Below, one piece after another: positions 6,611 to 12,246 of a stretch of DNA of 64,000 nucleotides. Below the pieces are notes generated by a model, which saw only the letters and a list, made by a program, of their open reading frames with translations, searched no databases and was not told the origin of the DNA. A program made the translations under genes and the position numbers. The DNA is taken from positions 171,926,001 to 171,990,000 of the forward strand of contig OZ320313.1 in assembly GCA_976226885.1 (NCBI GenBank). The letters run 5' to 3'. The first letter of the stretch is position 1, and each line of letters starts with the position of its first letter. The stretch comes from Iphione sp. A-MEVVRFRX5. Taxonomy: Eukaryota.

Positions 6611-9600
6611 ATGGCCTCTAATCATGGATTTATCGATTGGAATCTAGACGCTCTTGAGCTGTATGTTAACACCTTTACAGACAAGGATAGACTTTTATCA
6701 TGGGCAAATATGGAAGGATTGGGTAATCATCATCTTATAACATCAAGAATTCAAGAGTTGGAGAGTGGTGAGGTAAGTAACATGATAATTTATTAAATTA
6801 ACTGAAGTATGTGATAAACTATCTATTTTAATTATAAAATTTAGTGATATATATAATAAGTTATTTACTTGGATTAATTTTTAGATAATACAGCCGGGAG
6901 ATGAATGGTGTTTTTCAACTGAAGACTGGAAGCAACTATTATCAACTTTTGAATCTCTGTCCGATCTGGATGAATTTATTACATCTAATTCTCTGCAATC
7001 TGACAAACACGTTCATGCACGTAGGAAACAATTGATGGCTCAAGGAGAGGAAACTGTAAGTTATTTTATTTAACAGTAGTCCCATAAACACCTCCTGGTT
7101 TTATTGAATTTGAATGCTTTAGAACAGTTATTACTAAAAGTGGTGGAAAGATTTTTAATTAAATGATGGTGCAATTGTTTTGACTCAGTTAATGCGATGA
7201 GATGGATTTTTTTTTTTATATTACAGAATATGAAGACCAATATTTTTACCTGTAGAACATGTCAGCGCTCTTTTAGCTCTAGACGGGATTTGTATTTGCA
7301 TCAAGGCTTGCAACATGGTGGGGCAGATAATTTAAAGGATGAACCTTGGTCTAGCCAACCTCCTTGGATTAAAGGAAATAGGGAAGATGAGTCTTTAAAG
7401 GATGTATATAATGCCAATCGACGGCATATTCTAGCTCGTGATGAGGAAGGATCCATCACATCACTATTTAATTATCCCACAGAAGATTTACAAAGTGGAA
7501 CTCAAGAATTAGTAGATGATTTTGAAGATGTTTATTCTAATCAAAGGGAATCATTTAAAGTTAATATTGCTTTCGGTCTTATTCTTCAACATGCTGACAC
7601 TGATGAATACCGTTATTTTATCCCATATCATAATGTTACCTTATTTCCATCTCCTCTCTCTGTTTCAAAAATGGTAGATCTTCAATCAGTGAATGAGCGA
7701 TTGAAGAATTTTGATTTGGAATTGTATTTTAAACAGTTGAGACCAGATACTAAATGGAGGTTGATTATGGTAACAAATGTGGTATTTTATGTTACTAAGA
7801 CAGGGTTCCCTTTAGGAAAAGGGCTCCTCCCTAATTTTATTAAGAGAAAACATAGTATTGAAGGATTGGAACATCCTCCAAATAATAGATCGCATTATTA
7901 TAATGATTCTTTATGTATATTTCGTTGTTTAGCACTTCAAATGGGTCAGAAGCATAATATATCTGCTGCTGTTAATCATTATTATCATCAATGGCGAACA
8001 TTTTTAAAAGACTCAATATCTAAAAATCCAAAAACGTACGAAGGTGTGACTTTTCAAGAGTTGCCCGATTTTGAACGTTGTTTTAATGTGTCTCTATATA
8101 TTTATGAACTTAAACCTGATGACAGTGCTACTTTATTTTATAAACCCTCAACGAGATTTACCTCTATCATGTATCTTAATATCTATGAAAACCATTTATC
8201 ATTCATTTATAACTTTAATAAGTATGCCTCAAAATATCAATGTGAGTCTTGTCAAAAACATTTTAAATCTCATTTTAATTTTAAGAGACACATAAGATCC
8301 TGTCAGAATAGAACAAAACATAAATTTCCAGGAGGATTTTTCAGTCCTCCTCAAACTATTTTTGAACAGTTGAAGGAGATGGATATTCATGTTCCAGAAG
8401 ATAGTCAAGTTTTTCCTTGGTTTGCGGTGTTCGATTTTGAAGCTATATTAGAAAAAATAGAAGAACAAACATCAGAAAAGTTATCTTGGAACCAGAAACA
8501 TAGTCCAATTTCTGTGTCTATTTGTAGCAATGTTCCAGGTTTTGAAAATCCTCAATGTATCATCGATTCAGATCTGGGATCAATTTTAACTCAAATGTTT
8601 GATTATTTGGAATTTATAAGAGTAGCTATGGTTGAATATTCAAGTGAAAAATGGGGTTATGTCATGGAGGAACTGGAAAATATGATAAAGAAGTGGACTC
8701 CTAATGATGATTATGAGGAGGAGGGGGAGGGAGAGGAAAAGACAGACGATGATGACGGAGAGGAAGAAAGGGGATTAGACGGAGAGGAGTGGGGTAACCG
8801 TATTATGCGTACACAATTGAAAATTTTGAAAGAGAAAGTCGAGAATTATATTAACCAGTTACCTGTAATAGGATTTAACTCAGCTAGATATGATATAAAT
8901 TTAATAAAATCTAAAATATTTTCATATTTCGAGTCTCATAAAAATAAGAGTTATATAATTAAGAGAAATAACGCATATCTTAGTCTTGCCAATGATAGGT
9001 TTAAATTTATAGATATTGTTCAATTTTTAGCTCCTGGGTGTTCTTATACTAATTTTCTTAAAGCTTTTGGTGTAGAGGAGAGGAAGGGTTTTTTCCCTTA
9101 TGAGTATTTAGATTCATATGAACGATTGAAGGAAACATCGTTACCTCCTCATGAATGTTTTTTCTCTACATTGAAAAATTGCAACATTTCAAATGATGAT
9201 TATGATTATATAAAGAAAGTTTGGGAGGAGTGTAACATGGAGACTCTTAAAGATCTTTTAATTTGGTACAATAATAAAGATGTAGAACCTTTTGTATTAG
9301 CAATACAACGATTGCAGTCATTTTATTATGAAAGAAAAATAGATGTTTTTAAGATAGCAATATCTGTACCTGGTATTGCACGTCGTCTTTTATTTCAATC
9401 ATGTAAAGACACAAATTCTTATTTTCAAATTTTTGGTTCTGAGGATGAAGATCTTTATCGTACTTTTAAAGCAAATATCGTAGGGGGACCTTCTATTATA
9501 TTTAAACGCTTTCATAAAGTTGGAGAGACCCTAATAAGGGGAGGGAAACCATGTCAAAAAATTGTAGGTTTTGATGCAAATGCATTATACCTTTGGGCTA

Positions 9601-12246
9601 TTGGACAAGATATGCCTACTGGAGTTTATGTGCGCAGAATGAGAGATTCTGATTTTCGAGCTGAACGACAGGCTCGTTATGTTAGAATGTATCAGTGGTT
9701 GGAATGGAAATCTGCGAAAGATAATGTTGATATTATACACAGATTAAATAGAGGATACGAGAAAAGAATTGGACCTTATTTAGTCGATGGATATGCTCCC
9801 TCTTCAAAAACAGTTTACGAGGTATTTAAGATACTATATTTAATAAAAAAAATGGTTACACAATTATATTTAATAAAAAAGTGGTAACATAATATTTTTT
9901 AAGAAACTGAGAGAGACAAAATCTATTTGTGTTCCTTTTTCTTTTTCAGTTTAATGGATGTTATATTCATGGATGTGAGAAATGTCAAAAGGGTAAAATG
10001 GATGAAAATGAACGAATCAAAAAACTGAAACGTACAAAACAGAGAGAAGAATATATTACTGCACAAGGATATAATTTGAATGTTATATGGGAATGTGAAT
10101 TTAATATACTTTGTCAAATTGATACATCTATACGGGAATTAGAATTAATTCCAAGTTTTTCAAGGAAATACTCTGGTGTTCTAAGTGAATTAGAAATTCT
10201 ACGGGCTGTGCGAAATGGTGATATCTTTGGAGCAGTAGAAGTTGACATTAGGGTAAGTATATATATAGGAAAAAGGAACTAACTGATAGTAATTTATATC
10301 TGTTCATTCTAATAAGATTATTTATTTAATTAATTAATTAATTTTTTTACCACAGGTGCCGGAGAAGTGGAGTGATGGGTTTGAGCAGGATTGTTCACCA
10401 TCTGAGTATTTTGGAGAAATGTCTCCAATTTTTTGCACTACTGAAATTCCCTTTGAGAGCATTGGTTCACACATGCAAAAACATGCCAAGGATCATGATT
10501 TATCACAGGTATATATAAATTTTATTTAATATTATATTAATTGAATGATTTATAACACTTTACATTAATGTTTACTGGTGGATTCCAATGCTTCTCTTTT
10601 TTTTTTTAGAAACCAAGGAAACTCCTATTAGGTGGCATGAGTGCGAAAAAAATTTTACTTGCAACCCCGTTACTTCAGTGGTACTTGAAACATGGTATGC
10701 AAGTGACAAAAGTCTACCAAGTAATTGAGTTTACTAAGAAACAGTGTTTTGAAAGCTTCAAAAATGAAGTAACTGAAGCTAGGCGAGTGGGAGATGCGGA
10801 CAGGACTAAAAGCATTATTGCTGACACTATGAAACTTATTGGTAAGAATAAATATATATCTATTTTTAAACAAATAGCAGATATATGGAATTTATCAAGT
10901 GAACTTTTTTGTAATGATACATCTGCAGTGGGAGTTTGATTTTAAGTATAGGAGAGATTTATGTTAAAAAAATGTGGTTTATAATATTGTTATTTTATTT
11001 TATAGGAAATAGTGCTTATGGATCTTTGATTATGGATAAGGAAAAGCATCAAAATGTGTCATATGTCTCTGGAACAAGAAATGCTTGTCTCCAAGCTAAT
11101 GAGCCTGAGTTTCGTAAAATGTGTGAACTAGATGATGATTTATTCGAAGTGGAGTCTGTTAAACGTAAAATCATTCTAAATCTCCCAATATATTTAGGTT
11201 ATTTCATTTTACAATATGCAAAACTTCGAATGTTACAATGGTATTATGATTGTTTGGATATATTGGTTGATCGATCCGATTATGAATACATTGAGATGGA
11301 TACAGGTAAGTAAAAGATATATAGTATATAATCTAGTAAACAATGTCTTGAATTAATTAATCAATTAATCAATAATGGATACAAGTTTGTTTTTTTATTT
11401 TACAGAGTCCGTATATTTTGCTATTTTGAGTTTGTTTTTTTATTTTTTACAGACTCTGCATATTTTGCTATTTCGGGAAAAACATTACAATCTGTTATTA
11501 AACCATCTATGGCAGTCCCGTTTCATCAAGCAGTGAATGGATCATGTTCATCTTCTCCTAAGCCAACTTATTTCAGTCAGTGGTTTCCCCGAGAGTGCTG
11601 TGATGTACATAAATCTTTTGATAAGAGAACCCCTGGGCTTTTCAAGTTGGAAGCTAGTGGGGAAGAAATGGTTGCATTGTGCAGTAAAACTTATATCTTA
11701 AAATCAAATGAAGACTATAAAATGAGCTGTAAAGGTGTGAACAAAAATTCCTTACAAACCCCAATGGAGAAATATCAAGCAGTATTAACAACTCATCATT
11801 CAGTTCCTGGTTTGAATAAAGGTTTTCGTGCAAGGGAGAATACCATTTTTACTTATCGGCAAACAAGATCAGGATTGTCGTATTTTTATTGTAAACGTGA
11901 AGTGAGGGATGATGGAATTAACACTTCACCTTTAGGTATTGTTTTGTCTCCATGGAATATTCCTCAATCTTATGTATTCAATAGCCAGACAGATCCCCTT
12001 TCAAATGAGTTTCCCTCTCTAATCAGCTTATTCAATCAAATCTTTCATACAGCGCAAGAGGCTTATAATTACCAATTACAGTTTTATAATGGTACAAAAA
12101 TGGATTATATAGATGAGAAAAGAATGAAATTAAATGAAACATGGATCGAGAAAAGAGTTGACATAATGAAGGAGATTATTTTAGAAAAAATGAGAACCAA
12201 TGTTGAAGTACGTAAGGCTCTAAAAAATCAGGGGATCTACCATTAG
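6611..12246 (+). CDS. pPolB: Protein-primed family B DNA polymerase, 8 exons: 6611-6772, 6885-7055, 7227-9821, 9950-10252, 10356-10508, 10610-10841, 11006-11305, 11453-12246 (1569 aa as assembled), running into a C-terminal NADAR domain
   Basis: All seven introns are GT..AG and phase-compatible. Splicing restores VYE|FNGCYIHGC, KLIG|NSAYG (motif B) and EMDT|DSAY (motif C). Exonuclease motifs FDFEA, GFNSARYD, YNNKDV and motif A DANALY are present. Exons 1-2 are less certain than exons 3-8. Confidence 0.92.

Follow-up and report, generated by a model that had tools for sequence, protein, structure and literature searches.

A Polinton of Iphione sp. with seven conserved introns in its DNA polymerase gene

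Introduction

In vertebrate Mavericks, intact elements were defined as intronless and the 'introns' proposed by Genewise were treated as decay (PMC8097293); a prokaryotic gene caller was chosen elsewhere on the ground that such viruses 'do not contain introns' (PMC10120064); and the core genes of nematode Mavericks were described as intronless (10.1101/2022.07.12.499685). The element studied here, located in a 64,000-nucleotide stretch of Iphione sp. DNA (the window), departs from this description of Polintons, its polymerase gene being interrupted by seven intervals. Are these intervals spliceosomal introns or marks of a decayed element, and what would they mean for its replication?

Organization of the element

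The Polinton/Maverick in the window comprises 22,095 bp (5578..27672). It is bounded by 55-nt inverted arms that are 96% complementary (5578..5632 on the forward strand, starting AGTAGT, and 27618..27672 on the reverse strand) and flanked by an identical 6-bp duplication (5572..5577 and 27673-27678). Its membership in the Polintons is indicated by the joint presence of an rve integrase with a chromodomain (14528..15658, forward) and a packaging ATPase (12436..13203, forward; Pfam Pox_A32, E 7.6e-06), along with an adenain-type cysteine protease (25234..25677, reverse) with profile matches to ASFV S273R (E 1.1e-15) and the adenovirus protease (E 1.6e-05).

The ORF at 25691..27031 (reverse) is presumably the major capsid protein, and that at 15651..16058 (forward) is taken, from its position and sequence, to be the minor capsid protein. 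The former had no Pfam or PDB sequence match and the latter no match with any tool; as candidate capsid genes, both are conserved, with a fitting size, in 20 of 20 elements. The forward strand also carries a gene with a BIR (inhibitor-of-apoptosis) domain (13193..13615; Pfam BIR, E 9.6e-18) and an accessory ORF (16265..17197). The ATPase, integrase, protease and presumed capsid genes are single ORFs without introns, as the first-pass annotation had stated.

Exons and introns of the polymerase gene

The polymerase gene lies on the forward strand in eight exons, each open when read separately. Exon 1 (6611..6772, 54 codons) encodes a small domain that is also N-terminal in unbroken homologues, and did not match exon 2 (6885..7055, 57 codons) in BLASTP. 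Exon 3 (7227..9821, 865 codons) encodes C2H2 zinc fingers, followed by what we take to be the exonuclease region and motif A. Next are exons 4 (9950..10252, 101 codons), 5 (10356..10508, 51 codons) and 6 (10610..10841); exon 7 (11006..11305) runs from motif B to motif C, and exon 8 (11453..12491) ends in a NADAR domain. A frame break near 12,230, missed at first reading, falls in this last domain, where the window copy is not intact.

Homologues with PF03175 match at 45-49% over the searched region, which places the enzyme among the protein-primed family B polymerases; the Pfam search of single exons gave no polymerase match and the PDB sequence search with a polymerase fragment gave none. Named homologues come from molluscs, echinoderms, a lancelet and a coral. 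The VSR-like motif was read in 13 of 13 families and the homologues carry database labels, the polymerase being a candidate member of pPolB2.

The seven introns are intron 1 (6773..6884, 112 nt), intron 2 (7056..7226, 171 nt), intron 3 (9822..9949, 128 nt), intron 4 (10253..10355, 103 nt, at an AG|GT site) and intron 5 (10509..10609, 101 nt), all in phase 0, and introns 6 (10842..11005, 164 nt) and 7 (11306..11452, 147 nt), in phase 1. All start with GT and end with AG, and their GC content is 16-28%, against 31-42% in exons. Intron 3 was confirmed to divide the VSR-like motif (VYE|FNG), intron 6 motif B (KLI G|NSAYG) and intron 7 motif C (DT|DS). The GT-AG ends, extended donor consensus and pyrimidine tract are those of U2-type introns, in support of the spliceosomal nature first proposed; Rfam over the whole element gave no group I/II self-splicing intron match at E≤1.

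Recovery of the introns by homologues

Spliced alignment of known polymerases, a check suggested at the first pass, recovered introns 3-7 exactly. All ten unbroken polymerase frames from the same genome returned them to the base, and without the GT-AG rule gaps 4-7 kept the same lengths in 10/10, with shifts of at most 4 nt. External homologues, tried for 60 of the 120 listed, gave introns 3-6 exactly in 59, 56, 60 and 60 of the 60, and intron 7 in all 58 that spanned it.

Introns 1 and 2 were not recovered by external proteins (one of 60 spanned both, inexactly) and were accepted because they are conserved across families, where they were placed by homology and not by splice signals alone. 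Signal-only prediction put them elsewhere in families A, B and L, owing to a matrix biased by five positions. With introns 3-7 established through homologues and introns 1-2 through family conservation, all seven stand as first annotated.

Conservation across families

Comparison of sibling copies, also suggested at the first pass, showed intron positions largely common to 13 diverged families in the same genome, most of them about 62% identical to the window copy. The intron clade forms a single branch (SH-aLRT 100); partial rows L006, L020 and L027 were left out of trees and family counts. Intron 1 occurs in 44/47 copies and 13/13 families, intron 3 in 44/47, introns 5 and 6 in 47/47 and intron 7 in 46/47; the donor of intron 2 was found in 41/47, its acceptor being less sure in the other families. 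Intron 4, present in 38/38 copies of nine families and in 0/9 copies of families C-F, was likely lost cleanly in one subclade; the alternative, in which the carriers form a single clade, is only weakly disfavoured (AU p 0.04).

Across families, donors have a purine at +3 in 60/61 cases and G at +5 in 53/61 (46% and 19% at exonic GT), and a pyrimidine precedes AG in 60/61 introns, against a background of 40%. The intron sequences have fully diverged, since introns at the same position in different families are as similar (0.608) as unrelated introns (0.610). An introner origin is ruled out, introns at different positions within a family showing 0.613 against the 0.610 background. Another transposon's ends lie within introns of three families and were copied along with them. 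Purifying selection is indicated by a pN below pS for each exon in all comparisons between families, including 66/66 pairs for exon 2, which has a homologue in 12/13 families; between the window's family and the nearest one, dN is 0.115 and dS 1.25.

If the elements were dead and the intervals decayed insertions or artefacts of assembly, this would agree with the frame break of the window copy and with the 31 of 50 fetched copies that are partial or bear stops or frameshifts. However, positions, phases and splice signals are fixed across the 13 families, the exons are under selection, and 19 of the 50 copies, from 10 families, are full-length and free of stops and frameshifts. Of 15 intron-clade elements examined whole, 13 have both terminal repeats and identical 6-bp duplications, and five close copies differ from the window copy by 0.1-0.7% in exons; their spread is therefore recent. 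Decay is thus highly improbable and, as far as these comparisons indicate, the polymerase introns are old and inherited.

A sister clade and the proposal of regulated splicing

A sister clade whose polymerase core is unbroken is also abundant in this genome, where it accounts for 57 of the 150 best-scoring matches. At 8/10 of its loci a GTAAG/GTAAA donor follows a homologue of exon 1, and at 10/10 a phase-0 acceptor lies ahead of the long frame, so that its 5' leader is likely spliced. This bears on the proposal that intron gain was focused on one gene. Among the core genes, only the polymerase has introns, as proposed; the 5' leader introns, however, appear older and common to the sister clade, and intron 3 is found on several separate branches.

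The first-pass annotation also suggested a latency control. Regulated splicing could gate replication if most cells kept one or more introns and their removal were confined to the germline or to conditions of stress, as for P-element intron 3. Any retained intron breaks the frame and truncates the polymerase (74/74), catalytic motifs are divided, and the P element gives a precedent (PMC7776569). But the donors match U1 at a mean of 6.2-7.7 of 9 positions with none consistently weak, there is no excess of poly(A) signals in the introns, intron interiors lack conservation, intron 4 is dispensable, being absent from four families, and the relatives with an unbroken core thrive in the same genome. 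Neither intronic polyadenylation nor a conserved weak intron was seen in the polymerase introns, and we consider such gating unlikely.

Core introns in other lineages

Other polymerase core introns were found in 9 of 80 metagenome loci, at ten positions, a count that leaves out weak-signal aligner gaps such as those of L153 at 414 and L170 at 349 and high-GC ones. Five of the ten are within five codons of window introns (P 3.5e-4 under a uniform model; 0.04 when sites are restricted to the top tenth of conserved columns). The intron-3 position is shared by L113 and L164 (DNA) and by four truncated proteins, which do not form one clade (AU p 1.5e-5); on independent branches, motif B is divided at three positions that lie within 5 nt of one another and motif C at two that differ by 1 nt, while motif A is divided in L163.

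Such recurrence on independent branches would fit polymerases invaded independently and repeatedly at motifs A, B, C and VSR through a homing-like process. The short introns would then be relics of homing spliceosomal introns moving between co-resident Polintons, or would have spread by nuclease-driven gene conversion between them, with the best-conserved motifs of a single essential gene as the target. In mirusviruses, introns that encode nucleases of the HNH, GIY-YIG or VSR-like kind are specific to particular genes (PMC12768974), and this polymerase group itself carries a VSR-like insert (10.1101/2023.08.22.554363). On the other hand, 271 of 280 introns do not exceed 250 nt, the window introns are too short to encode a nuclease, and reading of the nine introns of the family set that are longer than 300 nt revealed no nuclease motif. 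One of them, intron 6 of family B, contains a nested ORF of 264 codons orthologous to the accessory ORF of the window. It had no Pfam match and no homologue, gave only non-significant GIY-YIG rows (E 0.05-1), and in the fold comparison reached a best Z of 5.0, to unrelated folds; it is a doubtful candidate for a homing nuclease. The Atlas search returned nothing for this ORF or for exon 1, and scans of viral contigs found no relative. Moreover, foreign introns are more easily detected in conserved regions, and an old gain with many losses and 1-nt sliding could yield the same map. Homing is therefore doubtful, though slightly less so than regulated splicing.

A probable nuclear, spliced polymerase transcript

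The explanation that we favour, and hold to be reasonably probable on the sequence evidence, is that of seven canonical introns at inherited positions, likely removed constitutively by the major spliceosome, so that the polymerase would be made only from a nuclear spliced transcript. Copying of the element likely needs the host splicing machinery, in agreement with the first-pass proposal. The introns would have been gained while ancestors of the element replicated in host nuclei, and may persist because it is copied from DNA to DNA. Single introns would be dispensable passengers, one of them likely lost cleanly via a spliced cDNA. That they pile up in the polymerase likely has two reasons: its gene is the only long transcript unit, with about 5 kb of coding DNA where the other genes measured have 1.3 kb at most, and one or more of the introns probably aid its expression or its escape from silencing. 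Such a benefit would explain the likely spliced 5' leader kept by the sister clade.

In human cells, introns act against the silencing of long transgenes by HUSH (PMC8770142). The silencing part of the explanation is weakened because the polymerase gene is not A-rich (34% A, 32% T; 40% A in the integrase and 38% A in the presumed capsid gene). A TASOR-domain search of the genome gave no match, but neither did its controls, so that it is uninformative. The five core introns sit in more conserved columns than expected by chance (p 0.004-0.015; no effect for all seven, p 0.33), which counts against the passenger view, since there is no obvious reason for pure passengers to prefer conserved motifs. 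The 2.6-kb polymerase exon stays unbroken, and this also counts against the favoured explanation.

Comparison with known systems

In the literature searched, no description of an intron-split Polinton polymerase was found, dinoflagellate introner insertions excepted. The following comparisons refer to the portions of each source that were available. Polintons with pPolB2 and a VSR insert (Jeong et al., 10.1101/2023.08.22.554363) share with this element the terminal repeats, 6-bp duplication, integrase, ATPase, protease and, probably, the VSR-like polymerase insert; here the polymerase has eight exons, whereas the two mentions of 'intron' in that text do not concern spliceosomal introns. Dinoflagellate polinton-like elements (PMC12166617) also contain spliceosomal introns, but these belong to repeated introner families, mostly inserted after integration and about 25% in coding regions, unlike the unique old introns described here, which occupy fixed inherited positions in one gene and share no sequence. 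The spliceosomal and homing introns of mirusviruses (PMC12768974) are similar in that short introns of GT-AG type lie in core genes and prefer some of them, that one site can hold different introns, and that genes are nested in introns; in mirusviruses the targets are morphogenesis genes and nuclease ORFs occur, while here the polymerase is affected and no nuclease-coding intron was found. As with P-element IVS3 (PMC7776569), the key enzyme of a DNA transposon is predicted to depend on host splicing, but no sign of a single regulated intron or a conserved truncated product was seen.

Implications

The introns contradict a working rule of surveys, which take Polinton core genes to lack introns and call elements intact on that basis. 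Intron-type copies are 93 of the 150 best-scoring matches in this genome, all with frames of at most 305 codons, and would look decayed in such surveys; the blindness of ORF-based surveys anticipated at the first pass is borne out by published practice (PMC8097293, PMC10120064). The introns also argue for transcription of these elements in the host nucleus. Finally, the 13 families offer examples of introns gained and cleanly lost, of exons lost or duplicated, and of positions that nearly coincide with those of other lineages; they are thereby a small natural system in which to test how introns originate, slide, recur and vanish.

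Polymerase introns of the window element

The Polinton of the window spans 5578-27672 (22,095 bp), with 55-nt inverted arms and the same 6-bp duplication at both flanks. It encodes an integrase with a chromodomain (rve), an A32-type ATPase, a BIR gene and an adenain-type protease; two further conserved ORFs are presumably the major and minor capsid genes. The host genome has 1.18 Gb, and the polymerase homologues that carry an organism name come chiefly from marine invertebrates, which suggests an animal host.

The seven introns proposed for the polymerase gene in the first-pass annotation (6773-6884, 7056-7226, 9822-9949, 10253-10355, 10509-10609, 10842-11005 and 11306-11452) were confirmed as AT-rich GT..AG introns of 101-171 nt, in phases 0,0,0,0,0,1,1, with every exon open. 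Introns 1 and 2 lie in the 5' leader; introns 3-7 interrupt the core. When ten unbroken polymerase frames of the same genome were used in the spliced aligner, introns 3-7 were placed to the base with 10/10, and gaps 4-7 kept their lengths with the GT-AG rule off. With 60 external references, from 120 homologues listed, exact recovery reached 59/60 for intron 3, 56/60 for intron 4, 60/60 for each of introns 5 and 6, and 58/58 for intron 7. In this spliced alignment, a check suggested for these introns, introns 1-2 were not recovered with the 60 external homologues. In the window copy, the aligner also placed a frame break at about 12,230, within the NADAR domain at the polymerase C-terminus, which is either a mutation or an assembly error. 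In many relatives the frame runs on through this domain.

Relatives in the same genome

A genome search with exon 6 as query gave 1,199 candidates, of which 150 were scored: 93 presented 70-100% identity and short frames, and 57 presented 61-68% identity and mostly long frames. Fifty loci of the former group and ten of the latter were fetched. Among the fifty intron-type loci, 47 formed 13 families on a single branch (SH-aLRT 100), the intron clade; the ten others (L051-L060) belong to a sister clade with an unbroken polymerase core.

Comparison across these sibling copies showed that the intron positions are largely common to the 13 families. Introns 1 and 3 were each detected in 44 of the 47 copies, the donor of intron 2 in 41, both intron 5 and intron 6 in all 47, and intron 7 in 46; intron 4 occurs in 38/38 copies of nine families and in 0/9 copies of families C-F. 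Donors have a purine at +3 (60/61) and G at +5 (53/61), compared with 46% and 19% at GT dinucleotides within exons, and a pyrimidine precedes the acceptor AG in 60/61. Retention would break the frame for 74/74 introns. Intron interiors have diverged to background (similarity 0.608 at the same position, 0.610 between unrelated introns); therefore the introns are old, and an introner origin is ruled out.

Every exon, including 1 and 2, presented pN<pS (78/78 family pairs; 66/66 for exon 2). The exon-1 domain forms the start of several unbroken external polymerases, and occurs twice in tandem in the database proteins P0005 and P0009. Full-length copies free of stops and frameshifts numbered 19/50, in 10 families, and terminal repeats with identical target duplications were found in 13/15 intron-clade elements examined whole. 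In five close copies, exon divergence from the window copy is only 0.1-0.7%, and gaps are more frequent in the introns. Family K (L023, L024) lacks exon 2, and families L and M (L043 and L036) have an apparent extra zinc-finger mini-exon inside intron 2.

The ATPase, integrase and both presumed capsid genes were free of introns in 20/20 elements aligned (14 of the intron clade, six of the sister clade), as the first-pass annotation had proposed for the window. The protease likewise aligned free of introns in 19 matches, apart from a single implausible 12.8-kb gap. Since gaps of 72-162 nt appeared in alignments of a few low-identity accessory genes, confinement to the polymerase is shown for the core genes only.

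Other features of the elements

The BIR gene (window 13193-13615) is present in 14/14 intron-clade elements and was undetected in six sister stretches. In the window's family, the right arm (16,265-27,531), with accessory genes, protease and presumed capsid, has the opposite orientation to that in the other families examined. ORFs 20792-21799 (-) and 22460-23200 (+) resemble signal-peptide, cysteine-flanked, single-pass membrane proteins; both are kept in 11/11 other families and had no match in a Pfam search. Segment 17,780-18,250 lacks a long ORF, yet it is conserved in several frames in 3-5/11 other families and is perhaps a regulatory or RNA element; an Rfam search gave no match. At 6060-6175, a weak Rfam match to TLS-PK3, scoring 32 bits where the cut-off is 80, is probably due to chance.

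Some introns host other sequences. In family B, the motif-B intron of L007 contains an unbroken antisense accessory gene of 264 codons (6805-7599, -), orthologous to window ORF 16265-17197 (+), whose location varies between families. Its product gave a confident model (pLDDT 89), and fold comparison found no clear match. One 75-100-nt piece is common to L026 intron 3, L030 intron 7 and L023 intron 4, and matches the two ends, paired in opposite orientation, of a different transposon of 3.5-10 kb located elsewhere in this genome. Intron 5 of L006 and L049 carries 3-5-kb insertions with long ORFs, one of which we take to resemble a reverse transcriptase.

Probable intron loss and probable spliced leader

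Families C-F read through the intron-4 site (AG/GT context) with zero indel and are nested among intron-4 carriers; a tree constraining the carriers to one group was weakly rejected (AU p 0.04). The simplest reading of these sequences is that intron 4 was cleanly lost in C-F, and we infer spliced cDNA as the route.

Upstream of the long polymerase frame, the sister loci present a probable multi-exon 5' leader. In 8/10, a homologue of exon 1 precedes a donor that is about five residues off the window site; in 10/10, a phase-0 acceptor is found upstream of the long frame, and in 3/10 the initial Met of that frame comes only after the first zinc finger. Because this clade combines leader donor and acceptor with an unbroken core, a spliced leader likely predates the core introns.

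Introns in other hosts and clustering of positions

Among the best 80 of 526 confirmed metagenome loci, nine had strong-signal core introns, each backed by 11-12 of 12 references. L113 and L164 share the window's intron-3 position, in the VSR-like motif. Near intron 6, in motif B, introns lie 4 nt upstream in L117, L118 and L153 and 1 nt downstream in L151 and L163; L163 also has one 1 nt upstream of the intron-7 position, in motif C. The remaining foreign introns occupy six further sites, motif A included, and one near intron 3. Database proteins ending in donor-like read-through at the intron-3 site (P0123, P0124, P0167, P0183), the intron-4 site (P0121) and other shared sites would indirectly indicate introns in their genes. 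In another lineage, about 30 database proteins (within P0196-P0240) end at one common site just before motif C, which suggests a further intron.

Carriers of the intron-3 position are not monophyletic (AU p 1.5e-5). Of the ten foreign positions, five fall no more than 5 codons from a window intron, a clustering with P of 3.5e-4 under uniform placement, 0.009 in top-third and 0.04 in top-tenth conserved columns, in a foreign set whose detection is biased towards conserved regions. The five core window introns fall in conserved columns (p 0.004-0.015); all seven together do not (p 0.33). Each unbroken core offers as many as 70-91 AG/G contexts, and therefore site scarcity is ruled out as the cause. 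A homing origin of the core introns, which has a precedent by analogy in passages of PMC12768974, would account for this pattern of positions, but none of the introns examined was found to encode a nuclease.

A literature search partly aimed at Polinton introns revealed, in the main-text passages covered, no account of inherited spliceosomal introns in the polymerase genes of Polintons. The literature compared comprised passages of 10.1101/2023.08.22.554363, PMC12166617, PMC8502044, PMC8097293, PMC12220804, 10.1101/2022.07.12.499685, PMC10120064 and PMC9341512; the word 'intron' was absent from the main text of PMC11131425 as available, and a term search of 10.1101/2024.03.18.585575 gave no match.

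Possible role of splicing

The initial interpretation held in part: the introns are real and, among core genes, confined to the polymerase, but the splicing switch has no signature in the window element. Regulated splicing has a precedent by analogy in passages of PMC7776569; its signature was not found in the introns of the 13-family set, which does not favor the proposed latency control. Most likely, the host's major spliceosome removes the polymerase introns constitutively. DNA-to-DNA replication would keep them in the element, and each would be dispensable individually.

According to passages of PMC8770142, long transgenes in human cells are shielded from HUSH by introns, and invertebrates have TASOR-like proteins (passages of PMC10578480). 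The polymerase gene is not A-rich, which weighs against a HUSH part; a TASOR-domain search of the host genome gave no match, nor did the controls. The polymerase has 4,955 coding nt, while the other genes measured have at most 1,332, and carrying at least one intron in this only long unit would probably benefit the element.
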